NCBI GenBank assembly: GCA_049590095.1 | Contig: JBAWCC010000047.1 | Coordinates: 1,988 to 65,987 of the forward strand | Reading direction: 5' to 3' | DNA: 64,000 bases | Origin: Allosphingosinicella sp. | GTDB lineage: Bacteria > Pseudomonadota > Alphaproteobacteria > Sphingomonadales > Sphingomonadaceae | Shown here: piece by piece, positions 4,923-47,147 of the stretch | Layout of the letters: every line of letters begins with the position of its first letter | Position numbering within the stretch: position 1 is the first letter of the stretch | Notes under the pieces: model-generated | Databases searched by the model: none | What the model was told of the DNA's origin: nothing | The model's input: the letters and a program-made list of their open reading frames with translations, nothing else | Program-made: the position numbers and the translations under genes

Positions 4923-5065
4923 GGCCGGCGGCGGGAATCGCAGCCGGCTTTTTTCACCGCTAAGTGATTGATTTCATTAGCGCAAAAACGCGGTTTACGC
5001 CGCGAACGTACAGTGAATTGGCACAATTTTTCAAGGGTCCTTTTCACTGTTTTCGAGGGGGTCAA
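4923..5065 (+). repeat. Copy A of the dispersed intergenic element (short form)
   Basis: GCCGGC..GCCGGC hairpin plus TTTTTT (4924-4954), then a conserved core (GCTAAGTGATTGATTTCATTAGCGCAAAAACGCGGTTTACGCCGCGAACGTACAGTGAATTGGCACAATTTTTCAAG..TTTTCACTGTTTTCGA). It aligns by eye to copies B-D. Confidence 0.85.
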
Positions 5066-5186
5066 CACCGGCCTTTCGGCCGGGATCAGGCGAATTCGCG
5101 CTCACAGGCCTAGGCTTTGCGACCCCGCGGCAGTTCCTCGGTTTCCAGCGGCCAGCTCGGGCATCTGATCGCCACGCTTCAGTGAT

Positions 5187-6425
5187 TTAGTTGGGCTTGG
5201 CGGTCCATGCCGGAGCGCTGGAAGCGGCCATTCCGGGCCAAATGACCTCCTGCGTAGCGACTCCGGCAAACAGCGTCCGGTCGTCGTCCGCCACCTGGCG
5301 CCAGGTTCGGTCGAACGAGGCCAGCATTCTCAGCTCGCTCGGCCTGGCCGTCATCGCACGGCTCGTCTCGATCACGATATGGGCAATCTTCGCCGGCGCG
5401 ACGGCGAATGCCGGGTCGAGCGGCAAGGCGCTGAACATCGTCAACCTTGTTCCATTGGGGCGCCCGGACAAGAGAATCTCCAGCGATCCGATCGCCACGG
5501 TCCGAAGGCCGACATAAAGCTGAGGCACGGCGGCGCATTGCCGGGTCAGGGGCGCGCGCGCAGACACGACGATCACGGCCAGCCCGGCTCCGTCGCGGCA
5601 GGCGTCGCCGCCGACGAGGGCGATCTCTTCGGCCGCGGCCAGGAGCTCGACCTGCTCCGGCGACGGCCCGGTTTCGCCCTCGTCGATCCACCGGATCCGG
5701 CTTATCCCGAGCGCCTTGAGGTGATTGATCAGCGCCGCGGCTTCGTCCTCGGCCGTCGATTCGATGCCGCGCGCGGCCGGATCGCCGCTCGTTTCGCGCA
5801 GCCCTATTCGGATAGCCGTGGCGCTATCCAATGGCCCCGTCGGGGCGAAAGATATGAGGAATGCGGCGGGGCCTGGACCCTCTTCGAGGACGATCCTTCT
5901 GTCATAGAGGCCGCCGCCGCGATTGATTTCGGAAAATTGGCTCGCGAGGACGTCGCGCCACCGTCTCTGCGAAGCCGTCGCCGGGGTCGGCAGCATTCGA
6001 ACGACGATCCGCCCGGCATCGACGCCGGGCGGGAGGCTCGATCCCCGATATGCCAGATATCGCCAGAGCGAGCCGCATTGATCGGCGTCGAGCGCGTAAC
6101 GCGGCATCGATCGGGCCAGCGTGCGCCCATCGGCGCCCCGGCCCGACTTCAGCGCGCGACACAGCGCGGACGGATCGCGATACGGCTGCCCATCGCCGAA
6201 CATGCCCTGAATGGGCGGGATCGCCGTGCCCCCCTCCGTGCCGCCTTCGCCCGACAAACCGTGGCAGGACGCGCAGGCCTGTCCGGCGGCTGCGAGCCCG
6301 TGATAGAGGTTCCTTCCCTCCGCAGGAAGGTCGACAGGGGCCGCGCCGACGGCGGCGACGCCCAGGAGCCCGACACCAATGAGCCCCAGCCGACAGCCGA
6401 GCGGCCGGCGGCTAGCGCGCGGCAA
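5187..6425 (-). CDS. periplasmic c-type cytochrome domain fused to a solute-binding-protein-like domain
   Basis: Signal peptide (LGLIGVGLLGVAAVGA) and haem-binding CASCH motif near the N-terminus. The ~300-aa C-terminal part looks like a periplasmic binding fold. The start is TTG and overlaps the SCO1-like gene, so the exact start is uncertain. Confidence 0.6.
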   Translation of the reverse strand: MPRASRRPLGCRLGLIGVGLLGVAAVGAAPVDLPAEGRNLYHGLAAAGQACASCHGLSGEGGTEGGTAIPPIQGMFGDGQPYRDPSALCRALKSGRGADGRTLARSMPRYALDADQCGSLWRYLAYRGSSLPPGVDAGRIVVRMLPTPATASQRRWRDVLASQFSEINRGGGLYDRRIVLEEGPGPAAFLISFAPTGPLDSATAIRIGLRETSGDPAARGIESTAEDEAAALINHLKALGISRIRWIDEGETGPSPEQVELLAAAEEIALVGGDACRDGAGLAVIVVSARAPLTRQCAAVPQLYVGLRTVAIGSLEILLSGRPNGTRLTMFSALPLDPAFAVAPAKIAHIVIETSRAMTARPSELRMLASFDRTWRQVADDDRTLFAGVATQEVIWPGMAASSAPAWTAKPN

Positions 6426-6957
6426 TGCGGACGGCGGCGGCGAGCTTGGCCGGATCGGGTAGATCGTCGAAGCGCTTCACGAGACGTCCCGATTGGTCGA
6501 GCACCAGAATCTGGGAGGAGTGGAGCTGCACGTCGGCGGCGGTCTCGCCATAATGGCGCATCAGCCCTCCGACATCCCGCGGGCCGACATAGAGAGCGAC
6601 CCAGCCCGGTTTCGCGCCATGCTGACGAAGCCATCCGGTCAGCCTGGCAGGGGTCGTCTCGCGCGGCAGGATCGAGACCGAGACGATCCTGAACGGCTTA
6701 GCGGGCGGGCGCTTGGCCAGGATCGCCTGGGTGCGCGAAAGAACCGCGCCGGAAAGGGGGCAGAAGCTCTGGCAGCTGGGAAACATGAAATGCAGCACCG
6801 TCACCTGACCGCCGACGACTTGGTGGAAACCCCGCCGCCCACCGGACTGATCTATCGTCAGCGGATTTGGACCGGCCATCCGTGCGGCCAGCGGCTGCGG
6901 CACCGTGGCAGCCAGCGCCAGCAGCGCAGCAAGACAGGAACCCGCCCGCGACCTCAC
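6412..6957 (-). CDS. SCO1/SenC-family thioredoxin-like copper chaperone
   Basis: GTG 6957 forms a GTGA overlap with the upstream stop. Signal-like N-terminus (SCLAALLALAATV) and CxxxC motif (FPSCQSFCP) in a thioredoxin-like context. The longer track ORF (to 7302) overlaps the upstream gene and is rejected. Confidence 0.7.
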   Translation of the reverse strand: MRSRAGSCLAALLALAATVPQPLAARMAGPNPLTIDQSGGRRGFHQVVGGQVTVLHFMFPSCQSFCPLSGAVLSRTQAILAKRPPAKPFRIVSVSILPRETTPARLTGWLRQHGAKPGWVALYVGPRDVGGLMRHYGETAADVQLHSSQILVLDQSGRLVKRFDDLPDPAKLAAAVRIAAR

Positions 6958-8699
6958 GGCGCCACCCGAATCGTCGCAACCGGCCGCCCCGCAAGCCTGG
7001 CCGGAAGGGTTACAGGGTCCGGCATCACCAGAAAGGTGCCCGCCCGCATCATCGTGACCTCCGCCTCGAATGTGCCCTTCCCGAGGGACCGCGCCGCTAC
7101 GCGTTGCTGCATCCCGACCCCGCTCACGTCCATGATCAATACGCCCACCGTCGACGGCATGTTGCCACCGTCCTCGAGCGTGAAGCGGATCGGCACTGTC
7201 TGTCCGGCCTTTGCTTCGTGGGTGCCCGCGGCGAGGACCACTCGAGTCTGACGCTCTTCCGCTGCCAGCTTCGCCTGGCCCCGGACCTCGAACGCGGCGC
7301 ATTGCACGAAGCGCGGCTGCGTCCCCGCAACGACGGCGACGTAGCGGCCGGGCCGCTCGAGCCTGAACCCAGCCTCGAACCGGCCGGCTCCGACCGGGCG
7401 GATCGTCGGCCCCACCAGCAGCAACCGCTCGGGCATCAAACCGGGGCTTCGCAACGTGCCCGACGGGATGTTCATGCCTTCATGATAAAGATAGATCAGG
7501 TTGCGCTCGGCATCCGCCCAGGCCGAGAGCCCGTCGGGAGACACGGTAAGCGGCGCTCCGGACCGGGTCGGAGAGACGGGCTCGCCGCCCGCGATCCAGC
7601 GCGGTCCGCCGCCGTTCGGCTGAGCCAATTCGGCCAGCGGCATCACCATCGTCTCGCCGCGACCTTCGGTCCTGACGAACAGGAAGCTGTCCGATGCGGC
7701 CAGGCTCACCGGCCGGTCGGCCTCGATGGTCCGGACGAACGCGCCCTGCTCGAGATTGGCGACGTGAAGGCCCGAAGCGCTTCGGTCATGGATCACGGCG
7801 GCATCGCCGCTGGGCGAGAGCCAGAGGCGGGCCTTGCCGGGCCGTGCGGCCGGCATTCCGCGAACGGGGGTAATCTTGCCCGACCGACCGACAATGACCA
7901 GCGCACCGTCCGCGGTCAGCCCCGCCAGCCCATCCGCCCGTCGCGACCAGGCGGCATCCTTGAGCGCGATGTCGATGGTGCGTGCCCCGCTCCCGCCGCC
8001 GATACGGCGAACATTGCTCTCGCCGATCGCCCAAAGCTCGCCGTCCTCGCCGGGCGCGACCATGACGGCCCCTTCGGTACCGTCCAGCCACTTGTCGGAC
8101 CCAGCGCCGATCTTGCGGAGGCGGCGGCCCGGAGCGCGCGCGTACAGCGCCCCGTCGCCCGCGGCCGCCAGCTGGGTCACCGCTCCGGCGTCGCCGATGG
8201 TTCGGGCTATTCGCCAGCGGGCCACATCCACCGCCACGATCTTTCCGGCGGTGGGCAGAGCCACCCAGATGAGACCGTCGGCCGCCGCCCAGTGCCACGC
8301 GGACGGCGCGCTGCCGAGCGCGAGATGCGCCAGCGAGCGCGCGCCGCGTATGCCGTTGCGCGGATCGAGGACATGCAGGCTGCCGGCCGGATCCAGCATC
8401 GCGACGTGGATATTGTTGAAGTCCCGGGCGGCCGGCTGGAACGGACCCGAGCTCAGCAGGCGTTCTGCACGCCGCTCGCACGTCGCTGCGGCCGGATCGG
8501 CGGTTTCCTCGTAGTCGATCCAGGCGAAGGGCGGCTGGGCGGCATTGCCCGCCTCCGATCGCGGCGCGGTGGTGACGCTGAGCCGCATCGCCGAGCTGGT
8601 ATCCAGGCCCCCCTGGACCGCCGTTACCTTCACTTCGGGACCCGCACCGGAGAGGATAACCGCCGCCGCGACGATCGATGCCTGTTTCAGTACCGTCAC
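6954..8699 (-). CDS. periplasmic beta-propeller-repeat protein with Ig-like C-terminal domain (unknown function)
   Basis: GTG 8699 forms a GTGA overlap with the multicopper oxidase stop. Signal-like start (VTVLKQASIVAAAVILSGAG). Repetitive Gly/Asp/Trp-containing blocks typical of YVTN/cd1-type propellers. Family call is tentative. Confidence 0.5.
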   Translation of the reverse strand: MTVLKQASIVAAAVILSGAGPEVKVTAVQGGLDTSSAMRLSVTTAPRSEAGNAAQPPFAWIDYEETADPAAATCERRAERLLSSGPFQPAARDFNNIHVAMLDPAGSLHVLDPRNGIRGARSLAHLALGSAPSAWHWAAADGLIWVALPTAGKIVAVDVARWRIARTIGDAGAVTQLAAAGDGALYARAPGRRLRKIGAGSDKWLDGTEGAVMVAPGEDGELWAIGESNVRRIGGGSGARTIDIALKDAAWSRRADGLAGLTADGALVIVGRSGKITPVRGMPAARPGKARLWLSPSGDAAVIHDRSASGLHVANLEQGAFVRTIEADRPVSLAASDSFLFVRTEGRGETMVMPLAELAQPNGGGPRWIAGGEPVSPTRSGAPLTVSPDGLSAWADAERNLIYLYHEGMNIPSGTLRSPGLMPERLLLVGPTIRPVGAGRFEAGFRLERPGRYVAVVAGTQPRFVQCAAFEVRGQAKLAAEERQTRVVLAAGTHEAKAGQTVPIRFTLEDGGNMPSTVGVLIMDVSGVGMQQRVAARSLGKGTFEAEVTMMRAGTFLVMPDPVTLPARLAGRPVATIRVAP

Positions 8700-11600
8700 T
8701 CGCACTTGCTGCTGACCCTGAGCACCGCCCAGAGGCCGCCGTCGAAGCCCCAGCTGTAGGTGTCGCGAATTTGATAGTCGCCCGCAACCCGGCCGGAACC
8801 GCCGGCACCGTGCGCCAGCAGCAGGTTCCAGTTGCTTCCCGGCCCGACCACGTCTCGGGTGCCCAGATAGGTGCTCAGCAGGTCGGGTCCGAGCTCGGTG
8901 GAGTTGTTGATGAACGGCTGGTCGTCCCAATTGTGGCCGGCCACCTCGATCACATGGTTGCGGCCATGCCCGTTGGGGAACAGCACCCGCATCCGCACCG
9001 GATCGCCGGGAAGGGCGCAGAACCTCGGCGTCTGGTTGCGGCTGTTGATGCCGTTGAAGCTGTCGCTCAGCAGATCGTTCTGGCGCTGGAGCACCGTCTC
9101 CGACCGAGGCATGGCCGCCGAGTGGACCCGGCGCATCCAGCCGGCCTCGCTTCGATAGTTGAACGCCTTGTGGGCGGCGTCGACGGCGTCGACCTCCTCA
9201 TCGCGCACTTCGCACATCGTCTTGATCGCATCGTCGGCGGCGCCGACGCACTGGGCGACCCGGCGGACCGGCTCGTCGAAGTTCGTCGCCGCGAACTTGA
9301 CGGAAGGCGCCAGCCCATCCTGCTGCGGATCGAGCGTCTCCGTTCGAGCACTCCGCGAGCCCGACAGACGCAGGTTGGCGTCATCCTGGCCGACCAGCAC
9401 GAAGTCGCGGAACGGCTTGCGGCTGTTGCTGAAGACGACCGCCGAGGCGCGGGTCGCCAGCGGCACGGTGTCGCTCGAGAACGGCTCGGGCGGGGTCGTG
9501 TCGAAGCCCCAATAGGCATCCGCCGGCTGGATCACGAGCGCTCCGAACAGTCCCTTGCCGCCCTGCTTGATCGGATCGGCCGGCATCAGGTTGAGCGCTC
9601 CGAACTCGACGGGCTGGAATTTCGGCCTGTTGCGGTTCTCCCAGTTCACCACGCCCGCATACCATTCGTAGCGGCGCGACTGCCCCGGCAGGATCGTCTG
9701 GACCGGATTGCGGCCGGCATTGATGCCGTCGTTGGTGCCGACGTGCTTGCGCATGGACTGGGCGTGGATTCCGACCCGCTCGGTGGTGCGAAGCTGGTTG
9801 ATGTTGAAGCTCGGCGAGGGGAGATTGGCGAAGCTGTTCAGGTCGCTCGGCTTCATCGCGTTGGTCAGCATCACGCTCAGGCATTCACCCGCTCGGCCGT
9901 GCAGGATGAGAGGCTCGATCTTGCGATCCTTGCGCAGCTTTCCAGTCATCGGATCCAGATCGATCACCCTCACATACATCAGCCCCGTCGGATCGTGGGC
10001 CGTCTTCCAGGAGTCGCTGGTGCTCAGCGCCGGGTTGGCGAAGACCGTCCCCGGCCGGAAGCGGTGATAGATCAGGGTTCCGTCGGTCAGCACGGACTTC
10101 GCGTCGACCGCCGCGATCCAGTAGTAGCGCACCGGCGCCCTCGGCGCGCACACGGGCAGCGATTGCGGATCGTTCAGGTCGACGAAGCGCGGGAGGTTGG
10201 CCCGGATCTGCTCGAAACGATCCTTCTGCGCGGCGACGTCGTTGAGCGCAGCCGGTGCCGCCGAACGCGCGGCGGTGGCGCTGCGTCCGATCGGAACTCC
10301 GGGCATCCGGGTCGGGTCGTTCAGATAGGAGGCCGCGTCGAGCCGAAGCGCATGCAGGGTCTCGACCATCTCCTCATATTGGGCCTCGAGCACCGCCGAC
10401 GCGTAATAGCCGCTCTGCGAGATCGGCGGAGTGGCCATTCCGGTGGCGGCGGCCGCGCCGGAGCGGAAGTTCGCGGGCTGGGGCGAGGTAGGCGTCCTGG
10501 CGGCGGCGCCCGTCGAGTCGGAAACGGCTTTCGCGGTGGAGAAGGCGCGGTCCTGGTCCGCCGTCTCGTCGCCCGACACGGCGGTTGCGGACACCAGGCC
10601 GACGTCGACCGCCAGGCCGAGCGATCTCGCCTCGCCGACCAGTTGCGCTTCGACCTGCTCGGTATCGGCGATCAGGTTGCGCAGGTAAGTCTCGTCGACC
10701 GCCTCATACTCGGCGGCGATCTCCGCCTGGCCGGCCTGGGCCGTTGCGTCGATCTCGGCTTCAAGTGCATTGACCGAAGCCAGCTCGGCCGCCGACGCCA
10801 GCCGAGCGGCGTCGGCAAGGGTCGCCAGATAGGACGGCCGGGCACCTTCGCGGTAGGTCCGGATCAGTCCCCAATTGCCGTACCACACGTCCTCGATGCT
10901 CGCGCCGATCCGGTAGAGATGGTCGAGCTGGCTGAACTTCGGCTTGGCCCAATTCGTCGGGGCGAGGCTGCTGGGAATGTCGAGCACTCCGTTGAACTCG
11001 AAATGCTCCGAAAGGGCGGTGCCGATGAAGCTCCGGTAGCCTGAATTGGGCTCGTGGGGCGAGTTTCTCCAGGTGAGGCCGTTGATCGTGAAGCTGCGCT
11101 CATGCTCGTGCGCTCCGGCCAGCAGGCGGATCCGGAACGGCTCACGCTCTCCGACCTCGAGCAGCGGCGTGAAGGGATCGTGGGTAAGCATTCCCGGCGA
11201 CGGCAGCGGCCAGGAAGTCCGGCTGACGCCCCCGACCAAAGGATAGCTCGGGATCGGGTTGTTAAGATCGCTGTCGACCCGCGAGATCGAGCGGAAGGCG
11301 TGGGCGAGATCGCCCCGCACGCCGGCCGACGAGGCGAGTTGGCTGGCGTCCCACAGCCGCGGGGGCAGCGGTTCGGAGCGGTAGTTGATGCTCATCTGTC
11401 CGATGTCGTCGGCGGAAACCAGCTCCGGGGCGCACGGGATCGTCCCGGCCGGACAGTCGTCGCCCGGCATCCATTCGTGCTTGACCAGGCGCGGCAGGCT
11501 CGAGCCGGTATAATCGCCGGGGTCGGCGTCGGCGACCTGGTACGGATGGTTGAGTCCGTTGACCTGGACGAAAGATCCGTCGTTCTGCTGCTCGAACCGG

Positions 11601-14600
11601 TCGTCCTTCGAGAAGGCGATGTGGAAATCCTGGAATTCGAGCGCGAACTCGCGGAAATTGTCCTGCTTCCGGTCGCCGACCACCAGCGCCTTCCAGCTGG
11701 TCGGCCCGCCGTCGCGTCGCACGCCGAGCTCGGTTAGCGAGCCGCGGCCGAGATCGTCGAACCAGCGCGTGCGCGAGGGCTCGACGATCAGCCCGGCGTA
11801 AAGCCCGACCTGCTGATGATTGGACGCCCCGAAATGGTCGTGGGTGAACACCGTCTCGAGCGTCTTGTCGAAAGTCTGGCCGCTGGCGAGGTCGCTCGCC
11901 TCCTGGGTGTCGGCATACCAGCGCTGGATGGTCGCCTGGCCGCCGACCCAGGCGCTTTGGCCGGGGAACCAGGGATGCGGCTCGGCGATCGGACACTGCG
12001 GAGTGGCGACTCGCGTATCGCCCGAGCCTCGGGTCGGGCTTCCGCTGCAGCCGTTGGCGGCGCGGATCGCCTTGATCCGTGCGACGACTTCTTCCGCGGC
12101 CGGGGTCCCGTCCTCGTAGTTGAACCCGTTGGCGCCGCCGTCGGACGCCTGGACGTCGAACTTCACCAGATGGATGTGCTGACCGATGATGTCGGTCGGA
12201 ACCTCGAGCTGGAAGGCGTCGCGCTTCATCTTCTTCGGCACCACGTTGGTGTGCTCGACGACGACGCAATTGCCCGAATTGACGCGCATGAACAAAGGCT
12301 GAGGCAGCCGATCGCCGGACAAGGTCGGAAGGATGTCGTCGCGAAACGCGAGAATGCGCGCCTGCGGCGTATGCCATCCCTTTTTGTTGATGATCATGTC
12401 GTACTGGAACGCGCCGATCTGGAAGCGCCGGGTGGTGGTTCCCGTCGCGGGCAAGCAGGGCTCGGCGAACGGAGCACCCTCCACGGGAGCAAGCGAGTTG
12501 GTCAGGAAGGTCGCCGCCGAACCGTCGGAGCGGAAGCTGGCATGGTTCTGAGCGTGGAACTGCATCGCGGATTTCTCGAGCGCAGTGCCGGCTTCGGGCA
12601 GATAGCTGGGCTGGAGAGTGACATATTCCTTGACCATGCTCGGCGGGAAGCTGGCCGGGAAATTCGTCGGGGTGGTGATTCCGCCGACGATGATGTGCCG
12701 CTTGAGACCGCCGTCGATCGGGTTGCCGGAAGCGTCGTGCGCGATGTCCAGCGGCGGCGGCGGCGGCCGGCCGCCCGCTCTGGCGGGAACGTGAAAGGGG
12801 TAACCGGGATAGCGGGTGGGATCGATGCTCCCCGTATTGATCTGGCCGCCCGTGATGGTGACCGGGCCCGGCACAGGCGCCATGACGGCCCCGGGCAGCG
12901 GAACGAGCGCCGGGATCGGCGATCCGCGCTCCATCTCGCCGTCGGGCAAGGCGCGCGCGTTCAGCGCCACCCGGCCGTCGGAGTCGAGCTTGGTGCCGGC
13001 CTCGAACACGTCGTGGACCCGCCACAGCGCCCACATGCCTTGCGCGAAATGCGGATAGAAATGGCAGTGGAAGATCGAATCGCCGGCGGTCCGGTTGCGG
13101 TTGCCGCTGCCGCCATAGGCGATCTCGTAGGTATAGCCGCCGCCCGGGCCGATCGTCTGGCTGTCGAGATAGGGCGAGCGCGGATTTGTCTGGATCTGCA
13201 GCCACTGATGGGCGTGCAGATGGAAGACGTGATGCTCCTTGGGGCCGGCGTGAAGATTGCGGATCACTACGCGGTCGTTGAGGTAGCTATGGTAGACGTT
13301 CGACGGATCGTCGGGGAAATAGGCCTTTTCCGCGGGCTGGTTCTCGAACGGCATGCTCCGGATCTGCATGTTGGCCGGCTTGTCGACCACCATCGCCGGG
13401 TCGCCGACCGCCCAGGACGACAGGAAATATTCCTCCATCTGGCAGTCGACGCAGTCCTTGACCGGGCCGACCTTCTTGCGGTTCGAAAGTACTTCGGCGG
13501 CGATCCCGGCGGTGCCGTAGTTGATCGCGAACCCGTCGCGGCCACTATGCAGCGAGCGGGCGAGCGCGCGCTCGGCGACCGGCGCGTCGTCGGGGGCGTC
13601 GAACTCCTTGAACGCCTGCACCGCGCCCGATTCGTCATGGAATATGACGGTGAACTCGCGGTACGGCTTGGTTCGGTCGCCGCATACCGGGAACGGCTTG
13701 CCGGCGCTGTCGAGGCAGAGGAAATCCTTAGCGATCTCGGCCTTGCTGACGTCGATGATCGCGGTCAGGTCGCTGTGGACCAGCTCGCGGCCCTTCAGCA
13801 TCGCGAACGGCGAGTAATCGGCGAACAGCGGGTGGCCCGCCGGGGACGTGCCGGTCGCCGCCTTCGCCATTTCGGCGCGGCTGGTCTGCGACCGGTACCA
13901 GACCGACCCCTTCGGCTCCACCGTCACGGCGGCGAACAGGCCGGCGTGGATCGCCCCGCCATTGCCGTCCGATCCGATGGTCGCGGCCGGGCTGTAGGCG
14001 AAGAAGGTGCCTTCCTCCTCGGCGATCAGGCGATAGGTGATCGTCTGGTCGGGCGCGACCAGCGACGACGGATTGCCGCCGACATGCTGCGCCATAGCCA
14101 GGATCGAGGCGTCGGGGGCGAGGCCGGTGACGTGAAGCCCGGCCATCCTGTCCTTCGGCTGGTCGCCGCAACCCCCTTCGCCGACCGGCGCGTTGTCCGG
14201 CCTGGGCGGGCAGACCGCATGCTCGGGCTTGGTCGTGACGAACTGGTTGCGGCGGTCTTTGTCCAAAAGGTTGGTGAAGACGATCTCAAGGCAGTCGCCC
14301 TTGTTCACCCGGAGCACCAGCGGGCGCGGGCGCTTCCCCGGCCGAAGCGCGACCTTGCCGGACGACAGGGTCTCGCCGAGGCCCGGCGGGCGGATGCCGT
14401 CGGGCGCCGTCGGGTCGGCGACCCAAAGGTCCTTGGTCAGGGCGAACATCATCCCGTGCGGCTGGACTGCGCCGTAGCGGTTCCAGACCCAGGCCTGATC
14501 GAGCGCGGCAACCCGGGCGACGACGGTGTTCGTGGAATTACATTGCGGTACCGTATCGACCAGCTGCGCTTCCGCAGGTGCGCAAAGCCCTAAGCCGATT

Positions 14601-36426: not shown

Positions 36427-36455
36427 CTGCGTGATCGGGCTCGGCCTCCCCCCCC

Positions 36456-38418: not shown

Positions 38419-38690
38419 GCAACAGCTGGTACAAAACAGTAGTACAAGTAGCCACAAACGACGGACTCGCCAGCGCGGCTAAGCCACTGGTTTCAATCGC
38501 CAAAAGCGGCTCCTCCTGTAGAGGTCACCTAACCACTTTAGCCATCCAGATGAGTGTCGTGTCCGCAGGAAGTGGCCGGGCGGCAGGATTCGCAGTCGGT
38601 TTTTCCGTGGGCTAAGTCATTGGTTTTATTGACGCAAAAAACGCGATTTACGCCGCAGATGTACAGCGAATTGGCACAATTCTTCAAGCC
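38419..38690 (+). repeat. Copy D of the dispersed intergenic element (long form)
   Basis: GCAACAGCTGGTACAAAAC.., CTCCTCCT at 38510-38517, hairpin plus TTTTT (~38575-38604), and core ..TTGACGCAAAAAACGCGATTTACGCCGCAGATGTACAGCGAATTGGCACAATTCTTCAAGCC. Confidence 0.85.
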
Positions 38691-38825
38691 GAAATGTGAG
38701 CACCTGAGGGACCAACGATGCATCGCTGCTGGCGGTGAATCAGGACCCGTCCGGCGATAGGACCCGAGCTAACGAGCCTCACAGCTGGCGCTCGTCTCCC
38801 AGGCATTTCGTCACGCGGACGCACG

Positions 38826-39413: not shown

Positions 39414-39991
39414 AACAACGACGGCTGCTCGCCGCGCCGAATGTCGGCTTCTGCCAACAATGCCGTCCGCCGCGGCTCGTCGAGCGGCGCAAGCAGGTGT
39501 CGCAATAATAGCGCTGAAAGAACGGCATCATAGGGAGCAGAATGTACCAAGGCGCCGGTGATCCGTGCGGCTTCAGCGTCCAGCTTCAAGGCTGATCCCA
39601 GGTGCTCGAGTCCGTACTTAGGCTGGTCGGGCAAAAGCCTGCGGGCGAGCTTTAAGGTATCGTAAGCTGCTGAGGGCTCCCACCCCTCCAAGGCATCCGT
39701 AAGAATGCCGAGCTCCACTCGCACATTATGACCGACGATCGGCTTGTCTTCGAGCCAAGTCAGGAGGTCGTCGACGACATCTTCGACTTCCGGCGCGTCC
39801 TCCACATCGCGATCCCAGATTCCGTGAATGCGGGACGCTATCGGCGAGATGCCGTTGCGTGGCCGTAGGCGCCAATGCTTGCGGTGTCCCGTCAGTTCGA
39901 GGCCGTCCATCTCAACGATAGCGAGCTCAACGATCTCAGGCGGTGACTTGCCGCTGCCTTCGACGTCGACGGCCCACATCCGCTCAGCCAT
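39410..39991 (-). CDS. DEDDh-type 3'-5' exonuclease (DnaQ-like)
   Basis: Exo I WAVDVEGSG, Exo II IVGHNVRVELGIL and Exo III HSAPYDAV. The ATG overlaps the radical-SAM stop by 1 nt. Confidence 0.7.
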   Translation of the reverse strand: MAERMWAVDVEGSGKSPPEIVELAIVEMDGLELTGHRKHWRLRPRNGISPIASRIHGIWDRDVEDAPEVEDVVDDLLTWLEDKPIVGHNVRVELGILTDALEGWEPSAAYDTLKLARRLLPDQPKYGLEHLGSALKLDAEAARITGALVHSAPYDAVLSALLLRHLLAPLDEPRRTALLAEADIRRGEQPSLL

Positions 39992-41124
39992 TACCAGCCC
40001 TCCTCTGCGCGTCCGTGGCGGCCGGGCAAGTGCGGCAGCTTCCGGTCGTGGACCTGATATCCCAGCGAATGTTGGACGAAATATCGCTGCTGCTCGTTGC
40101 TATCTTCCACAAGAATGCGCCCGTCACAAATTTCGATCCGCCGTTCGTCTAGTCCTGCCGTTCGCGCGAGGTCAGCGAGTGCGAGAGGAACGGGCGCGCG
40201 ATGGGCGCCGGCACAGAGTCTCAATTGCGCCGCAGGACAGATGTCACAGATATCCTTGACCCCGAAGTGACCGTTGTAGTCTGCAACGCCGTGAGCAAAC
40301 GCCACACCGCACGATGTCTTGCGGAACAGCGGGCCACCTGAAAATCGCTCCAGCACTCGAGCTTCGAGATCGCGCGGCAGGATTTTGCGCCGAGGCGCCT
40401 GCTCATATAGGTCCTCCACGCCCGCATCCCGCAGGTAGGCCCTGATCTCCTGCCGATGAAATAGCCCCGTGAACACCGTGGCGTCGGCCAGTCGCGAAAG
40501 TTCGCCCGCTCGGCGGATGTTCGCGTCACTGTCGTTAAGTCCCGCGATCAATGGCCTCCAATAGAGAATGCGCTTCGTTCGGCGCGCGTACTTCGCGAGG
40601 TGGGCAAGCGACTCCTCAGCCACTTCGCTATCGACCGGCTCAATCCGACGGTCTGTGATGCCCGACCAAGTGACCAGCACGGTGACACGCACATGCCTCA
40701 ACTGCTCGAGGCGGTAGATGTCATCGGAAGTTATCTTCCACCGGGTTATCACCAACACGTGATTAGTCAGCTCGCGCGCATCGAGGAGCTCGAGGGTTCG
40801 CATCAGATGGTCTTTGACGCGGGGCAAGAAAGGGTCGGTGGCCCGATTGAACAGTTGAACCGGAGTGGTATGAGGGCGGAACGCCCAATGGCCCGTCAGC
40901 TGCTCGACGGCATGTTCGTCGCTCATGACGAGATGCGGGCGCTTCATCTCGAAGTTGTCGAACAGGTGCCTCACACAGTAGCCACAATCGAGTGGGCAGC
41001 CCACCACGTGGTTGAGGCTTAGCCCGGACTTCCGGTATTCAACCACGTCCGCAAGTGACGCCGGAAGGTCGGCAGGAGCGGGGCGAAGCCGAGGGAAATA
41101 CTCGAGGCCGACGATCGCGTTCAC
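39991..41124 (-). CDS. radical SAM protein (SplB/COG1533-like layout)
   Basis: GTG start with AAGGAG 8 nt upstream. CxxxCxxC cluster motif VGCPLDCGYCVRH about 40 aa from the N-terminus. Confidence 0.7.
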   Translation of the reverse strand: MNAIVGLEYFPRLRPAPADLPASLADVVEYRKSGLSLNHVVGCPLDCGYCVRHLFDNFEMKRPHLVMSDEHAVEQLTGHWAFRPHTTPVQLFNRATDPFLPRVKDHLMRTLELLDARELTNHVLVITRWKITSDDIYRLEQLRHVRVTVLVTWSGITDRRIEPVDSEVAEESLAHLAKYARRTKRILYWRPLIAGLNDSDANIRRAGELSRLADATVFTGLFHRQEIRAYLRDAGVEDLYEQAPRRKILPRDLEARVLERFSGGPLFRKTSCGVAFAHGVADYNGHFGVKDICDICPAAQLRLCAGAHRAPVPLALADLARTAGLDERRIEICDGRILVEDSNEQQRYFVQHSLGYQVHDRKLPHLPGRHGRAEEGW

Positions 41125-41296
41125 TGAACAATCTCCTTAGCGGCTGGTCCGCTTTGTTGTGCCACTCTTAGCGAGCCTCTGGTCTACGGCACCAGGACCG
41201 TCGCTAGGGACTGTTATCTCCGCAACGAAGATACCCTGTCCGATGATCTGACGCGGAGATCAGTCTCCCTGGAGTCCCTTGATTCCGGCGCGAAGC

Positions 41297-41524
41297 CTAG
41301 AACACCGAGCGATGCGCTTCTGGCTCTCTGAGCTGGAGACGGCGCTTCAGGAAATCCAGCAGCGCTTGCCCCACTGCGGTCGGAGCAAGTTCATGGCCTT
41401 TACACTTTGGGCAGTTCAAGCTCGCCCGCATCTCGTACGGATCGGCTTTCGGAGAATCTCCCGTGCCGCCGCACGCATCGCAAGGCTTCTCAAGGGCCGG
41501 TAGCTCCCAGTCACTGCTGTCCAT
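41297..41524 (-). CDS. small zinc-ribbon protein (75 aa)
   Basis: Two CxxC pairs (CDACGGTG ... CPKC). ATG 41524 with a purine-rich stretch upstream. Confidence 0.45.
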   Translation of the reverse strand: MDSSDWELPALEKPCDACGGTGDSPKADPYEMRASLNCPKCKGHELAPTAVGQALLDFLKRRLQLREPEAHRSVF

Positions 41525-41670
41525 GCGCACCCCTTTCAATGGAGCGCGTCGCAAAATACGAGGCGCTGCTGCCTGTGTATGCGACCCCACGGGAAATGGC
41601 GACGGGCCCGCAACGAGCAGCGCGGATCAGCGACGCAAGGATCGGCCGCACTGTCCCTCACAAGCAGCGC

Positions 41671-42465
41671 CTATTCTGCGGGAAACACGAACATGGGCGG
41701 AAGCGGATGCTTGGCGGCGAACGCAGCCGCCATTGCGCTAAAGGGCGAGGAAGGATCTGCAGCGCGCTCGTAAAATTCTCTGCGGCGCGTGACCAATTCT
41801 CTCAGCTCTGGATGCGGGTCCTCGTTGTTCTGGACGATGAACGCGTGATAGTCGCGCAGCTTGGCGATCAGTTTGTCACGCGGCTTGTGCTCAAGCCGGT
41901 CGAGCCCAAGTACCTTTATTGTCGCTTTCCCCCTCGCGCTGATCCCGCGGGGCATCTCGTCGACAAACTCGATATGCTCGGTGGGGTCTTCCGCGTCCGG
42001 CTTGAGAAGCTGCGGCGCTTCGGCCGCGATGGCCCGATGATGGTTGCGGGCGCGGGCGGCTGGGTCATCAAGTGGAAACTGCGTGCCCTTGTTGCTGCTG
42101 TTGCAGAATTGGCACGCGAGCAGCAGGTTATCCCACGCATAAGCCAGCCAATAATAGCCCGGCGGGGATGCCTTGATTCCTCGCGCCTGCTTGAAGCTTC
42201 CCTTTGGACGCCAATGCTCCACATGCGCGACCGCGTAGGGCCTGGGTATGCGAACCTCGCAAAATGCGCACTTCCCATGATGCGACACGTCGAGCGCGTC
42301 CCTGACCGTCTTGTGCCCGTAAATGGAGTCCTTGATCGTCAGGGTCTTAAGACCGCCGTCATAGGCCGCCGGGTCCTTATCATAGGCTTCGCAAAGCTCC
42401 TGCGCGCCCTCGACGCCGAGCGTCAACAGAACTGCAGGCGCGTCCCCTTTGTCGATCCGGATCAT
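41671..42465 (-). CDS. ptuB: HNH endonuclease, Septu PtuB-like
   Basis: HNH core (GKCAFCE ... HVEHWRPK ... NLLLACQFCNSSNKG). Starts 5 nt downstream of an AAA ATPase gene, the gene pair typical of Septu. Confidence 0.55.
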   Translation of the reverse strand: MIRIDKGDAPAVLLTLGVEGAQELCEAYDKDPAAYDGGLKTLTIKDSIYGHKTVRDALDVSHHGKCAFCEVRIPRPYAVAHVEHWRPKGSFKQARGIKASPPGYYWLAYAWDNLLLACQFCNSSNKGTQFPLDDPAARARNHHRAIAAEAPQLLKPDAEDPTEHIEFVDEMPRGISARGKATIKVLGLDRLEHKPRDKLIAKLRDYHAFIVQNNEDPHPELRELVTRRREFYERAADPSSPFSAMAAAFAAKHPLPPMFVFPAE

Positions 42466-42470
42466 CCGCC

Positions 42471-43859
42471 TTAGCCTTGCGAGTCTTCCGCAGCTCCGGA
42501 CATGAGCTGCTCAATATCTGCTTCCATACTGACCGAGCCGCTTTGCACCGCGTGAGCGAACCGGCTTAGCTCGGTGAGGCGATCGCTCTCCGGCGGGGAC
42601 AGGTCGCCTTTCTGAATCAAGTCGCGCCGCTCCGCGAGCAGCGCCTCGAAACGCAAGGGCAGCGAGGTCTCAAGCTCGAAAGCGCCAGTCATGACCTCAT
42701 CGAGCCTAACCGCCGCCGCTGGAAACGGATCAGGCTTGATGACAGCATGGTCGCCTTCCCAGCGCACGATCGAGACGGGATCGCCCGCAGCGATGCTCTC
42801 CTGCGCGATCACGGGCGAGTGGGTCGACACGATGAACTGAATTCTGGGAAAATGCTTCAACAGCTGGTGGCGCAAGCTGCGTTGCCAAACCGGATGCAGA
42901 TGCAGCTCGACCTCGTCGACCAGCACGATCGCGCTCTCCCTAAATGGGTCTAGGCTGTCAGGAAATTTGGTGCGCAGTCTCCATGCAAGGTCGACTAGCC
43001 ATGCGACCGTCGTTTGAGCGCCGAGGCTCAGCTGAGCGAGAGGGGCGAAGCCGGACGGCGTCCTGACGCTTATTCCACTTCCCTCAAGCTTCAGATCCTC
43101 TGGCGAGAGCTTTGGGATCAAGGCGGCGATAGCTGCCAGCATGGAGTCGCGGAAACCTTCCCAGCGACCCTGCTCCTCTGCATTATCGGCACGCTTAGCG
43201 AGCAGCGCATTATAATCAATGCGATCAGGCACTTCATCAGGATCGACTAGCTTGATCTCCTCGTCGAACAAAGCTTCTGTCGGGTCAAGCTCCTCGAACG
43301 CGGACAGGTTGCCATGGCCTGCGTGCCGAAAGGCACTGTAGGCGATAACCAGCGGCCCATCTCCGGATAGCAGCCGCCTGGCGAGCTTGGGCTCCGCTGA
43401 TTCCAACTCTCCGCATCTTGTGACCACGTCATAGCCAAAGCTGAACGCCTCGCCTTGCTCGGAGACCATATCGACATAGAGGCCAGCGGTCATCGCATCG
43501 CCACGGCGAACAAGGCTTTCAATGCGGGCATTCTCATAGTCCGCCAACGCGGGCGCGATCGCGTCCGGAGGACCGGCTTCCTTGCCCGGCGCGCTAGCCT
43601 GCTCCGGCTGCTGCTCCGCCGGATCCTTCTTGAGGACCGGATCCTCGTTTAGGAAGGCGGACGCGGGCGTGCTGACCGTGGGCACGGGGCGCATCGCCGC
43701 CAAGGCTTGCAAAAGCGTGGTCTTGCCAACGCCGTTCTCGCCGATGATCACGCACCAGCGCGCCGGCTTGCCATCCTTGGAGAGGTCGAGAGTCTGCCGC
43801 CCGCTAAACGCCCGCACATTGGCCAGCGACAGGCCGAGATAGTGGATAGGGTCGGACAT
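42471..43859 (-). CDS. ptuA: AAA15/21-type ATPase, Septu PtuA-like
   Basis: ATG 43859 with GAGGAG RBS. Walker A CVIIGENGVGKTTLL and Walker B-like AIVLVDEVELHLHP. ABC/SMC-like layout. Confidence 0.55.
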   Translation of the reverse strand: MSDPIHYLGLSLANVRAFSGRQTLDLSKDGKPARWCVIIGENGVGKTTLLQALAAMRPVPTVSTPASAFLNEDPVLKKDPAEQQPEQASAPGKEAGPPDAIAPALADYENARIESLVRRGDAMTAGLYVDMVSEQGEAFSFGYDVVTRCGELESAEPKLARRLLSGDGPLVIAYSAFRHAGHGNLSAFEELDPTEALFDEEIKLVDPDEVPDRIDYNALLAKRADNAEEQGRWEGFRDSMLAAIAALIPKLSPEDLKLEGSGISVRTPSGFAPLAQLSLGAQTTVAWLVDLAWRLRTKFPDSLDPFRESAIVLVDEVELHLHPVWQRSLRHQLLKHFPRIQFIVSTHSPVIAQESIAAGDPVSIVRWEGDHAVIKPDPFPAAAVRLDEVMTGAFELETSLPLRFEALLAERRDLIQKGDLSPPESDRLTELSRFAHAVQSGSVSMEADIEQLMSGAAEDSQG

Positions 43860-44282
43860 CGGCTCCTCGGACGGCAGCAAGTGCGTCGTGCCTAGACGCA
43901 TCCATCGGCTCTGACCACGTTGATGTTGGGCTTGACGCCTCCGATCTGCCTTTCGATCGAACTTTTCGGTTTGTGTCGGGCAGTAGCAATTTTCAGTATT
44001 TATCGCTGAGATGTGTCAAATAATATGGCTAAGGCTTACATTCAGTCTCCATATGTTTTAAGATGAATTATCACGCATCCCCAGTCTTTCAGCCAAAATG
44101 TGCCTAGAGTTAATTTGGACAACGCAGCTATACTGCGACTGCGTTTGCTACATGCTGGAAGCTCGCCGTGATCGGCGTTTCGACGAGGGGCGAGGCACGC
44201 ACGACATGCCGTCGCATAGGCACTTACACGCGTCCGACGCGCATGATATGGGATTTACAGAATCCTGCCACGGAGAGACACA

Positions 44283-44438
44283 ATGGAAGCGACGCCGATC
44301 CCGGCTCCCAAAGACGTTGCCCCCGATCCGCTTGGAGTCGACAGCGTCGTGCTGGCGCGACTGCTCGAGGAGGTGCGCAACAACATGGCAAGCGCGCCGA
44401 CGGCGTACAATCGGATGCACAACCGCCATAACCGCTAG
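44283..44438 (+). CDS. RiPP precursor peptide (51 aa) with C-terminal YNR-M-HNR-HNR core; not in ORF track
   Basis: GGAGAG RBS 7 nt upstream of ATG 44283. Translation is MEATPIPAPKDVAPDPLGVDSVVLARLLEEVRNNMASAPTAYNRMHNRHNR. TAG 44436-44438 lies 4 nt before the rSAM/SPASM gene. The leader resembles Fxs-type leaders. Confidence 0.65.
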   Translation: MEATPIPAPKDVAPDPLGVDSVVLARLLEEVRNNMASAPTAYNRMHNRHNR

Positions 44439-44442
44439 CGGC

Positions 44443-45579
44443 GTGCTGAGCGGAAAACTTCCCTCGACGAAGATCGATACCGTGCTCGTCAAGCTTGCGA
44501 GCCGTTGCAATCTCGACTGCGATTATTGCTACGTCTACAATATGGGCGACGACGCTTGGAGGCGTCAACCTAAGCTCATGTCGCTCGAGCTGATTGACGC
44601 GCTTGGCCGAGGACTGGCGCGGCTGATCGTGGCACAGAACGCGCCCCTTAGCGTGGTCTTTCACGGCGGCGAGCCGCTGCTGATGGGGCCTGCTCGCTTT
44701 GAGGCGATCTGCGCTGCGATACGCGCGCACGTCGGCCCTGAGATAGGCCTGCACGTGCAAACCAATGGCGTGCTGCTGACGGACGGCGTGATAGATGTCT
44801 GCGAGCGCTATGACGTCGGCATCAGCATCAGCATCGATGGCCCGGCGCAAGTCCACGATCGCCACCGCGTCACCCGGACTGGGCGCGGCTCGCACGCGGC
44901 TGTGCTGGCGGCGATCGCGCGGCTCGCCGCCCATCGGGCCGGAGGCACGTTGTTCTCGGGCCTGCTGTGCGTGATCGATCTCGCAGCGGATCCCGCGGAG
45001 GTGTATCGGTTTTTGAAGGCGACCGGAGCGCCGAGCATCGACTTTCTGTACCGGGATGGAAACCACGATCAGCTGCCCGTTGGCAAAACGCATCGTGACT
45101 CCGCCGAATATGGTACCTGGATGGCCCAGCTCCTCGACGTCTACCTTGGCGATCCCGCACCCATTCGCGTTCGCGTCCTCGACGACATGCTTCGCCTCCT
45201 GCTTGGCGGGCATGCGGTGAAGGAAGGCATAGGCGAGAACGCTTTCGGGATCCTGGTGGTCGACACCGATGGCACGGTGGCTAAGAACGACACCCTTAAA
45301 TCGGCAGCGAGTGGTGACCGGTTCAGTGGCAGCTGGTCGGTGCAGGATGGCCTTGACGCGCTTGTCGCATCGGCTGAGTTCGCTGCCTATCATCGCTCAC
45401 AGAGTCCGAGCGCGGCCGCCTGCATCGCCTGTACGGATCTGGCCATTTGCGGCGGCGGTATGCCAACCCACCGCTGGAGCGCTGAGCGCGGCCTTGATAA
45501 TCCGTCGGTGTTCTGCGCCGATCAGAAGCTGCTGATCGGGCAGATGCGCGCACGGATAGGATGCCGAGACGCAGCATGA
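44443..45579 (+). CDS. radical SAM/SPASM peptide maturase (FxsB / three-residue-cyclophane-forming type)
   Basis: CxxxCxxC motif ASRCNLDCDYCYV and Cys-rich SPASM tail (ACIACTDLAICGGG ... VFCADQ). GTG 44443 is chosen because the upstream part of track ORF 44098.. overlaps the precursor. Confidence 0.75.
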   Translation: MLSGKLPSTKIDTVLVKLASRCNLDCDYCYVYNMGDDAWRRQPKLMSLELIDALGRGLARLIVAQNAPLSVVFHGGEPLLMGPARFEAICAAIRAHVGPEIGLHVQTNGVLLTDGVIDVCERYDVGISISIDGPAQVHDRHRVTRTGRGSHAAVLAAIARLAAHRAGGTLFSGLLCVIDLAADPAEVYRFLKATGAPSIDFLYRDGNHDQLPVGKTHRDSAEYGTWMAQLLDVYLGDPAPIRVRVLDDMLRLLLGGHAVKEGIGENAFGILVVDTDGTVAKNDTLKSAASGDRFSGSWSVQDGLDALVASAEFAAYHRSQSPSAAACIACTDLAICGGGMPTHRWSAERGLDNPSVFCADQKLLIGQMRARIGCRDAA

Positions 45580-46157
45580 TCCTGGCGGATTTCACAAGCA
45601 GACAAGTTAAGGCGACGCCCTTTCCGCATGTCCGTGCCGTCCATGCCTTGCCGGAAGCGCTTGCGTCCAACGTGCTCGACTGGCTCGATGCGGACGCACC
45701 TTGGTCGCTGACGGAGGCCTCCTTCTACGAGCAGCAGGAGTTCTCGCTGCTCAGCGCCGACCTCCCTGAGGCCGTGGAGCCGCTCACCTCGTGCGCGCTC
45801 GTCGCCTCGATCGCTAGGGAGCTGGGCGCGTCGCTCAGCTCGGGACCGCTGGAGCTGGTCGACGTTAACGCGCACCGGCTTCTCTCGGGCATGACAATTC
45901 GGCTGCACAATGACTTTCTCGGGACCGCCGAGGAGTCGCACCGCATGCTCATCCAGCTCAATCGCGGCTGGTCGCAGGAGCAAGGCGGCCTGCTGATGCT
46001 GTTCGAGGAGGACCGCCCGGAAAGCGTGGCCGACATGGTGTTGCCGGTCCACCGCAGCGCCTTTGGATTCGAGATTTCCGAGTGCTCGCATCATGCGGTC
46101 TCGACGGTGCACAATGGCGTCCGCGACACGATAGTCTACACCTTCAAGAAAACGTGA
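45576..46157 (+). CDS. 2OG-Fe(II) oxygenase-superfamily protein
   Basis: ATGA overlap with the rSAM stop. HxD motif (IRLHNDF) and a distal His (CSHHAVSTV). Confidence 0.6.
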   Translation: MILADFTSRQVKATPFPHVRAVHALPEALASNVLDWLDADAPWSLTEASFYEQQEFSLLSADLPEAVEPLTSCALVASIARELGASLSSGPLELVDVNAHRLLSGMTIRLHNDFLGTAEESHRMLIQLNRGWSQEQGGLLMLFEEDRPESVADMVLPVHRSAFGFEISECSHHAVSTVHNGVRDTIVYTFKKT

Positions 46158-47041
46158 TGACCGCACGCGCGCGCGTTCTAGCAGCGATCGCTGGCACCTC
46201 GACACGATGGTATCCTAGCCTCGCGCCGCAGCTCGCCGATGCCAAATGGGATGCGCTGGCGACCTTGGGGCTTAACTCTGAAAGCTATGGCACGACCCGC
46301 ATGATTACCGCGGACCCGTTCGGTCCGCGGCGCATCGAGGGCACGGTGGAAATCGACGGACGCGAGATAAAGATCGAGGAGTTCAGCGATGCGATGGAAG
46401 CGCGTTACGCCTCGCTCGGCATAGCTTCGGCAGATGCGGGTCTCGTGCCGGATGCGGCGATTGGCCGGCTGTCGCGAGCGCTCAAGCTTCTCGAGCACGT
46501 GCCCGGACTGTCGCTCACGATAGGCGCGCTTGTGCGCTCGCTGCATCTGATACGGGTCGGCGAGCCGGAGTATGATGCAAGCTACAGCGATCCCGAGGTG
46601 CCCTTCTCGATTTTCATCGGGCTGCATCCTGAAGCCACTGAGATGGATGCGTTCCGCTTGGCGGAAAGTGTAGTGCACGAGGCCATGCATCTGCAGCTCT
46701 CATTGATCGAGGCGCAGGTTCCGCTGGTCGCGGGCGCACGCACGCTCGATCACTCGCCATGGCAGGATGGGCCGCGCCCAGCGCAGGGGCTGCTGCACGG
46801 ACTCTACGTCTTTCGCGCGATCCAAGATTTTCTGGCGGCGATCCCGTCGAACCAGCTCGACGAGGCTGGCACGCAGCATGTGCGGCGGCGGGTCGCGCTC
46901 ATCGACGATGAATGCGAGCAACTTGCGGGGTTCGATCAGACCTCAGACTTGACCGCTGAAGGCCGCATGCTCGCCGCTGGGCTTCTGCTGGGAGGACGAT
47001 ATAGACCAACGCGTGTGTCGGCTTCAGCTGCATCGATCTGA
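46157..47041 (+). CDS. HExxH-motif peptide-modification protein (FxsC-like)
   Basis: TGATG overlap with the upstream stop. HEAMH motif (SVVHEAMHLQLS). Genomic context is an rSAM/SPASM RiPP cluster. Confidence 0.65.
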   Translation: MTARARVLAAIAGTSTRWYPSLAPQLADAKWDALATLGLNSESYGTTRMITADPFGPRRIEGTVEIDGREIKIEEFSDAMEARYASLGIASADAGLVPDAAIGRLSRALKLLEHVPGLSLTIGALVRSLHLIRVGEPEYDASYSDPEVPFSIFIGLHPEATEMDAFRLAESVVHEAMHLQLSLIEAQVPLVAGARTLDHSPWQDGPRPAQGLLHGLYVFRAIQDFLAAIPSNQLDEAGTQHVRRRVALIDDECEQLAGFDQTSDLTAEGRMLAAGLLLGGRYRPTRVSASAASI

Positions 47042-47115
47042 ACGAAGTCGCTCAAGCGAATGACCGCTTGTATGACAGGCCATTTCATGACCGACAATTG
47101 GCGCCAAGCGGACGT

Positions 47116-47147
47116 CCTACAGCGATTTTGCACAAATTTCTCAAGCC
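47116..47147 (+). repeat. Copy E (degenerate remnant) of the dispersed intergenic element
   Basis: CCTACAGCGATTTTGCACAAATTTCTCAAGCC compared with the core ATGTACAGCGAATTGGCACAATTTTTCAAGCC. Confidence 0.55.

Follow-up and report, generated by a model that had tools for sequence, protein, structure and literature searches.

Copies of a conserved non-coding element in an Allosphingosinicella contig as probable attachment junctions of tandem genomic islands at a tRNA-Gln gene

What kind of DNA element recurs, in one orientation, at the borders between otherwise unrelated gene modules? The question is raised by a stretch of 64,000 nucleotides from contig JBAWCC010000047.1 of Allosphingosinicella sp. 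(termed here the window), in which a first-pass annotation, made from the sequence alone, had noticed five copies (A to E) of a conserved non-coding element. That annotation had suggested a cassette array or accretion hotspot and had considered several identities for the element: a recombination or attachment site, the conserved end of related mobile elements, or a reused terminator, small RNA (sRNA) or regulatory module. The analysis described here indicates that the copies are very probably attachment (att) junctions--either of attR type or internal--of a family of integrating islands whose target is the tRNA-Gln(UUG) gene at its 3' end. On this reading the window comprises a succession of four or more old islands, none with an integrase, that entered at one tRNA gene. 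The hotspot reading is thereby supported, and the 3' end of tRNA-Gln supplies both a target and a mechanism for it.

Four of the five copies are confirmed. By repeat detection, A to D form one direct-repeat family (at 4984, 15494, 24046 and 38637) with 71-87% identity over 70 nt. An nhmmer profile consisting of 18 copies, that is, these four together with 14 from related genomes, finds all four in the window as full-length matches on the + strand (4910-5047, 15412-15557, 23966-24109 and 38561-38698; E 4e-38 to 1e-47). At E, by contrast, the match (47108-47152, E=0.002) covers only the last ~40 profile positions (107-147), and the hairpin and tRNA part is missing; E is a partial or diverged arm rather than a full copy, and may have been left by a further junction or else be an internal site. 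The motifs first quoted for the element were seen again on reading the sequence, and a MAFFT alignment recovers the shared core as well as an extra left-hand part in C and D. This extension, first put at about 180 bp, is ~160-180 nt long and is also present in L008 and L030 (related loci are designated here by L-numbers).

The identity of the element emerges from the sequence with which it begins. In copy B the first 21 nt reproduce the tRNA-Gln(ttg) 3' end in reverse complement, CCA included and without a mismatch (21 of 21 positions, with 0 expected by chance), and the tRNA-Gln(ttg) genes of L015, L019 and L020 terminate in ...GGTTCGAATCCTGCCGCCCCAGCCA. Copies A, C and D carry versions of the same 3' end with indels, among them a 1-nt core deletion common to C, D and L008. 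The conserved block starts sharply at (AAC)TGGCTGGGGCGGCAGGATTCG in every copy, the sequence to its left being unrelated between copies, and all 26 related copies (26/26) begin at the tRNA fragment. To the right, conservation reaches ...GGCACAATTTTTCAAG, beyond which there are a few flank subfamilies and then different genes. Between the left flank of the L004 copy and the DNA directly downstream of the L015 tRNA-Gln(ttg) gene there is 92% identity. ARAGORN reported no tRNA or tmRNA in the window; the fragment is too short for it to call and was recognized only by way of L015. The GC hairpin and T-run by which the element was first described are indeed present, but the left half of the hairpin is the tRNA-Gln 3' end (a point that the first-pass annotation missed), and its stability is unusual only in A. 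The four cores are as follows.

4922-4941, - strand: core of junction A, a degenerate tRNA-Gln 3' fragment with indels, TGGCCGGCGGCGGGAATCG on the + strand (from an alignment of 18-19 copies)
15429-15449, - strand: core of junction B, a perfect 21-nt tRNA-Gln(ttg) 3' end, CGAATCCTGCCGCCCCAGCCA
23982-24001, - strand: core of junction C, in which the tRNA-Gln 3' fragment lacks 1 nt and has two substitutions
38573-38592, - strand: core of junction D, in which the tRNA-Gln 3' fragment lacks the 1 nt that is also missing from C and L008

In related genomes the same site lies beside a dedicated integrase. L015 contains a whole island of ~5.3 kb, bounded at one end by tRNA-Gln (2418-2492) and at the other by an arm and partial core (7693-7833, in tRNA sense); between these lie ~100 nt containing ATTGTGCCAAAAATTGTGCCAATAGACTGTGCCAA, a frameshifted tyrosine integrase split over three frames (with PF00589 on its C-terminal piece) and a nucleotidyltransferase gene. 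In L019 and L020 the order is an aminotransferase gene (Aminotran_4), tRNA-Gln(ttg), a ~150-nt arm and an intact integrase, the frame of which is open from an upstream TTG that adds an N-terminal VYRRGHIFWWRR segment, for a total of 617 amino acids (aa). The DUF6538 domain expected at the N-terminus of the L019 integrase is undetected by Pfam, even from the upstream TTG start. For this integrase family 62 homologs were found at E<=1e-10; most of the closer ones have a called length of 500-566 aa, and the source records of several label them 'integrase'. The L021 and L022 Logan contigs begin within the T-arm of the tRNA and from there run through this arm to the integrase; assemblers break in this way when the core is repeated. 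Degraded forms are common as well: L004 has an internally deleted integrase after its junction, and L013 has an integrase stub of ~25 codons, a glucokinase gene and an internally deleted second junction. The two L013 junctions (5506-5648 and 7090-7168) are 1.5 kb apart with nothing but the glucokinase gene and the stub in between, and hence modules in such arrays can shrink to a single gene. In L021 the related island carries dndBCDE beside the same integrase family.

Taken together, the L015 island and the linkage of integrase to tRNA in relatives point to the element as an attR-type junction, consisting of the core repeat and the integrase-distal arm. Because the tRNA sense corresponds to the - strand of the window, each island lies to the right of its copy, which the first-pass annotation likewise had not seen, and an intact tRNA-Gln gene is expected beyond position 64000. 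Read in tRNA sense, a copy thus comprises a conserved arm of ~100-115 nt, the last 21 nt of tRNA-Gln and then unrelated sequence. The arms, including that of E, are these.

4942-5065, - strand: arm of junction A, the integrase-distal (P-type) end of island 5066-15392, with motifs AATCAAtcACTTAG and TTGTGCCA
15450-15605, - strand: arm of junction B, the P-type end of island B-C; likeness to L006 extends to 15605
24002-24136, - strand: arm of junction C, the P-type end of island C-D
38593-38718, - strand: arm of junction D, the P-type end of the right-hand island, with the right-flank subfamily of L003, L012, L013 and L016
47108-47152, - strand: E, a distal-arm match with the pair TTTGTGCAAAATCGCTGTAG in tRNA sense and no tRNA core

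In tRNA sense the arm reads, in order, CTTGAAAAATTGTGCCAATTCGCTGTACAT; an inverted repeat, GGCGTAAA-N-TTTGCGYC; AAATCAAnnACTTAG; an A-run; CCGGCTG; and the core. In the alignment, the changes that L001 and L008 show in the inverted repeat (GRCGCAAA..TTTACGCC) improve or keep its pairing. The segment AAATCAAnnACTTAG fits the consensus for integration host factor (IHF), WATCAANNNNTTR, its variable positions falling within the N stretch, so that AATCAAnnACTTAG, which lies ~20 nt from the core, may be regarded as an IHF-consensus-like site. In the window AATCAAnnACTTAG occurs 5 times against 0.07 expected, and all five occurrences are at junctions; one of them lies inverted across core B, and in L015 and L019-L022 this inverted copy is likewise found after the tRNA. 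For TTGTGCCA there are 7 occurrences where 0.82 would be expected; five fall within copies, all on the - strand, in tRNA sense. The TTGTGCCAA / CTGTACAT pair, outermost in the arm, is a candidate for the arm-type binding sites of the integrase, because in L015 and L020-L022 the stretch from tRNA-Gln to the integrase start contains three TTGTGCCA-like direct repeats, of which L019 has more diverged versions. These motif counts lend support to a putative role for the arm sites. A sigma-70-like TTGAAA-18-TACATT is found on the - strand of arm C (24096->24067), where it overlaps the TTGTGCCAA site, and at equivalent positions in A, B and D. This weak putative promoter points across the tRNA core and, speculatively, would read into the integrase gene in a circular island. 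Reading TGGCACAATTTTTCAAG as a sigma-54 promoter was rejected by eye, the -12 GC element being missing or out of register.

The opposite, integrase-proximal ends of three islands can also be located.

15395-15428 (34 nt), - strand: P' arm stub of island A-B, AAGCATTAGCTAAGTGGTTGATTTCGTTGGCTCC in tRNA sense, after which the integrase appears to have been deleted
23818-23981, - strand: left-hand extension (ext) of C, the P' end of island B-C and of a second P' type, common to D, L008 and L030
38419-38572, - strand: ext of D, which matches the ext of C in type and forms the P' end of island C-D

Taken with core B (15395-15449, 55 nt), the stub shows 91% identity to the tRNA end and downstream arm of L019 and L020, and nhmmer gives an inverted partial profile match at 15393-15422. 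The far end of ext reads, in tRNA sense, LYY(R/C)FVPAVA (LYYRFVPAVA in C); it is probably the 5' stub of an integrase gene, since it resembles the YYFRxRVP N-termini of distant integrase homologs. Within ext there is a hairpin, AAGTGC...GCACTT, around CCCCTACGGGG (23880-23960 and 38480-38560; L008 3465-3573; L030 805-925), in which 5 of the 17 predicted pairs show compensatory changes, at low energy and among four sequences only. A small open reading frame (ORF) in ext was considered and rejected, as indels break the frame between C and D. Scanning metagenomes for the ext motif gave 0 matches.

The integrase itself is absent from the window. As the first-pass annotation had stated for the 64 kb, none is to be found, nor any remnant of one, whether in a Pfam search of the main ORFs, in tblastn with the family integrases as queries or in a six-frame hmmsearch with an integrase profile (best E 0.2); between 5066 and 38418 there is no integrase, relaxase or type IV secretion system domain. 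Each of the islands A-B, B-C and C-D is nevertheless flanked by att junctions on both sides. On account of the missing integrase, these three are classified as decayed fossils that resemble cis-mobilizable elements (CIMEs), and would not be autonomous islands.

The following series of events would give rise to such an arrangement. The circular form of an island would carry, in order, arm, core, P' arm and integrase gene. The tyrosine integrase would recombine the island core with the tRNA gene, the tRNA fragment acting as the core repeat of strand exchange, so that the tRNA gene would be rebuilt on one side while the displaced tRNA 3' end would be left beside the far end of the island. Repetition with different islands--or import of a composite element--would yield the series tRNA-Gln, island n, core, island n-1, core, and so forth. 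The window would view this array from the distal side, with A as the outermost junction and with the intact tRNA-Gln, along with any working integrase, to the right of 64000; islands A-B, B-C and C-D would have lost their integrase genes by deletion, leaving the proximal-arm stubs behind. It fits this order of events that A, expected to be the outermost (oldest) junction, is the most diverged copy, with 68-82% identity to all others. B is 96% identical to L028 and 94% to L025, as against 75-86% to A, C and D, whereas C and D are closest to each other among the window copies. The copies in the window are thus no recent duplicates of one another but have separate ancestry, and this divergence, together with the differing GC content of the modules (given below), suggests independent acquisition.

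How widespread is the site? When 185,579 species genomes were scanned for the exact pattern, 14 true copies came to light, every one in Allosphingosinicella or other Sphingomonadales metagenome-assembled genomes (MAGs), and a metagenome scan found eight more. There are 1-2 copies per genome representative and all matches belong to one clade. By BLAST the element has no match among PLSDB plasmids, and the first 25 kb of the window has short gene-level matches only; an arm scan of IMG/VR gave 0 matches. Across the 26 related copies the left flanks are unrelated and the cargo differs, while the site is conserved. The element also behaves like a repeat in assemblies: by coordinate arithmetic, a Logan contig from the window's own sample starts at ~38652, inside arm D, and L004 and L010, contigs of one MAG, end or start in the element. 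Of four proteins looked up by exact match, two are not on record and two led to Logan contigs of one sample that end inside the window.

The modules delimited by the copies are unrelated in gene content, as had been proposed and as both Pfam and PADLOC now confirm. To the left of A lie RND efflux and DUF6488 genes (Pfam); the remainder of the window is arranged as follows.

5066-15392, cargo on the - strand: body of island A-B, with cytochrome c, SCO1 and a giant multicopper-oxidase-like ORF (Pfam)
15606-23817, both strands: body of island B-C, with an arginyl-tRNA synthetase (ArgRS)-like gene (+) and methyltransferase, saccharopine-dehydrogenase-like, HAD and aminotransferase genes (-) (Pfam)
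24140-38418, - strand: body of island C-D, an operon for CHAT, a ShlB-type transporter, a protein with a two-partner-secretion (TPS) domain and a 1877-aa SIR2 protein (Pfam)
38720-47107: first part of the body of island D, with AAA_28, DEDDh exonuclease, Septu PtuB/PtuA, radical-SAM and 2-oxoglutarate (2OG) oxygenase genes (Pfam, PADLOC)
47153-64000, running past the window: mobile-backbone and defence region, with ParB, MobA/MobL relaxase, NTase-HEPN, PbeA and PbeC (Pfam, PADLOC, L018 gene calls)

From left of A to right of E, the GC content of successive modules is 0.683, 0.668, 0.611, 0.658, 0.613 and 0.651. In tblastx comparisons of all related loci with the window, only the arms and a hipA remnant are held in common, the many low-score lines being noise.

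Several points weigh against tandem islands at tRNA-Gln as the explanation. E is without a core. That the array ends at tRNA-Gln would follow from the relatives, the window itself containing neither an intact tRNA-Gln nor an integrase. The IHF and arm-site assignments are based on motif resemblance only, and no excision product or empty site has been observed for the islands. There are at least three types of proximal end (the L015/L019 type; ext; and a third in L025, L027 and L031) as against a single type of distal arm, which a simple model does not predict. Moreover, the ext type (C, D, L008 and probably L030) never precedes an integrase where the flank is readable, and the 1-nt deletion linked to it, which lies in the acceptor strand, would leave the tRNA non-functional were exchange to occur upstream of it. 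Concerning the third proximal type, the left flank of L025 (~370-700, - strand) contains what appears to be the middle of a Xer-like recombinase ORF running toward the core; this could be a truncated integrase, from a second family that shares the site.

The alternative that fares best accepts the junctions as they stand and differs as to where the array was built: the window would be a composite integrative and conjugative element (ICE) or integrative and mobilizable element (IME), with a relaxase backbone and trailing integrase-less islands, that had accreted elsewhere and was acquired en bloc. We regard this as a serious possibility, although one that falls short of being probable. ParB and the MobA/MobL relaxase in the right-hand part of the window indicate that a mobilizable element is present, transfer of CIME-ICE tandems has been documented (PMC5704250), and C and D, the closest pair in the window, have in common both ext and the 1-nt core deletion, which suggests that they traveled together or arose together. 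On the other hand, GC content differs from module to module, the copies from other genomes that are nearest to A are not those nearest to B, and no second genome with the same module order was found among the loci compared.

A further proposal takes the ext islands (B-C, C-D, L008 and probably L030) to be something other than fossils, namely a satellite-like, integrase-less lineage in which both att arms are under selection and which is moved in trans or in cis by an integrase of the tRNA-Gln family, swapping cargo such as defence genes as it goes. It includes an outward arm promoter (TTGAAA-18-TACAT) that would read across the core into an integrase gene only in circles or tandem junctions, like Pcirc of ICEclc. 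This combination seems to us unlikely.

It is highly improbable that the element is instead a functional RNA or regulatory cassette (a terminator with a promoter, or an sRNA) reused at operon borders, with its tRNA-like start being incidental. Its 100 nt are strongly conserved, the hairpin with T-run is very stable in A (-24.3 kcal/mol, z -4.6), and the sigma-70-like motif of C lies on the - strand. Yet, relative to shuffled sequence, the hairpin shows no extra stability in B (z +0.4) or C (z +0.7) and only a modest amount in D (z -1.4); RNAalifold arrives at -9.8 kcal/mol, with +0.2 as its covariation term, and compensatory change is seen in 1 of its 23 predicted pairs. Rfam is empty at the gathering score over the whole window and yields at E<=1 around C only a chance miRNA match, and no canonical terminator was called at B or C, the only two junctions scanned. 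A cassette of this kind leaves both the 21/21 identity to tRNA-Gln and the linkage to an integrase in relatives unexplained.

Least credible of all is a dispersed miniature inverted-repeat transposable element (MITE) or repetitive extragenic palindrome (REP), or some other recombination site (an integron attC, a Xer/dif-type border or a relaxase oriT), for even though these direct repeats do lie at module borders, the window includes a MobA/MobL relaxase and the CTAAGT after the inverted repeat loosely recalls a MOBQ oriT layout, there are only 1-2 copies per genome, in one clade, each with its tRNA-Gln fragment (unlike a generic high-copy REP or MITE), no terminal inverted repeats or target duplications are seen, the modules (8-14 kb, multi-operon and in both orientations, with no integrase in the window) are unlike an integron with its IntI integrase, attI site and short, largely promoterless cassettes, the site is conserved in sequence and shows no covariation, in contrast to attC sites, which are conserved in structure, and a dedicated tyrosine integrase adjoins the same site in relatives.

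Some of the cargo deserves description in its own right. In island A-B the giant ORF (8696-14635, -) encodes 1979 aa with one weak Cu-oxidase_2 match (E 7e-6), the rest being mostly unannotated; cytochrome c and SCO1 lie downstream. Just left of junction B there is a 3' remnant of hipA (15099-15298, +), which has 80% DNA identity to the end of hipA in L010; in L009, L010 and L011 a complete hipBA pair, with ATATAC-rich operator-like repeats, comes right after the arm. The first gene of the low-GC island B-C encodes an ArgRS-like paralog (16243-17841, +) with only the catalytic domain (tRNA-synt_1d, E 8e-13), and the gene set of this island may specify a small-molecule pathway that uses an aminoacyl-tRNA-synthetase-like enzyme. 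The operon of island C-D (24275-38261, -) encodes a CHAT protease-like protein, a ShlB/FhaC-type transporter, a 1111-aa TPS-domain exoprotein and the 1877-aa SIR2-domain protein; two-partner secretion, CHAT and SIR2 within one operon is an unusual combination, and PADLOC has no model for any of its proteins.

Two defence systems were recognized by PADLOC farther to the right: a Septu pair at 41671-43901 (-), consisting of PtuB (41671-42465, E 1e-85) and PtuA (42471-43901, E 1e-136), and a Pbe-type cluster at 60221-64000 (+), consisting of PbeA (60221-62341, E 2e-194) and PbeC (from 62519 past the window end, E 2e-121). Just right of E, beside ParB and the MobA/MobL relaxase, is a 452-aa protein (47218-48576, +) with no Pfam match; its N-terminus (...MTRIAQRFDVSGSYLARICNLLNVP...) resembles a helix-turn-helix, it has a charged coiled region, and it may regulate the mobile backbone.

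No new principle is revealed by the array. What it does provide is a marker--the 21-nt tRNA-Gln core and ~100-nt arm--that delimits islands in the genomes and MAGs of Allosphingosinicella and other Sphingomonadales, and that accounts for the assembly breaks in L021, in L022, in the Logan contig starting in arm D and in L004/L010. It also brings to light tRNA-Gln as a hotspot that gathers defence genes (Septu, Pbe and the SIR2/CHAT/two-partner-secretion operon), toxin-antitoxin genes and metal-handling genes. Lastly, the att sites and integrases form a natural series that is useful for exploring arm-site recognition and the decay of islands into integrase-less modules.

Tandem islands at tRNA and tmRNA genes, including integrase-less ones, are well documented (PMC5704250, PMC3146451); the present family has not previously been described. 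In its layout the site resembles a lambda-type attP, in which the core likewise is flanked on both sides by inverted IHF-consensus-like sites, short motifs are directly repeated on both arms and the integrase gene lies beside the P' arm; here, however, the sub-sites are assigned by sequence pattern only, and no excisionase has been identified. As for the array, the closest parallels are the ICESt1/ICESt3 family of Streptococcus thermophilus and other IME/ICE tandems (PMC5704250). In these, too, the 3' end of the target gene forms part of the att sites, islands that have decayed and lack integrase and transfer genes still retain those sites, and unrelated cargo modules lie in a row in one orientation with a mobilizable element at one end; integration, decay to a CIME that keeps its att sites and entry of a further element into an att site have been described for ICE/IME tandems at tRNA genes (PMC5704250). 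The window differs from them in its Sphingomonadales host, its tRNA-Gln target and its long arm (~100-115 nt), and cis-mobilization is putative; its integrase family, unlike that of ICESt1/ICESt3, is of ~560-617 aa with only PF00589 detected, PF20172/DUF6538 being found in distant homologs. A second parallel is the ssrA locus of Dehalococcoides, at which more than 12 tandem islands are each marked by a 20-bp repeat of the gene 3' end with additional conserved bases alongside, and where 15 islands without integration modules have been proposed to be cis-mobilizable (PMC3146451). There, as here, the islands lie in tandem downstream of a small-RNA gene, with a direct repeat of ~20 bp and insertion in the T-loop region, a position that is putative for the present family. 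The Dehalococcoides islands, however, combine a serine recombinase (DsiB) with the tmRNA gene and carry dehalogenases, whereas those of the present family combine a tyrosine integrase with tRNA-Gln, and the cargo in the window consists of defence and metal genes.

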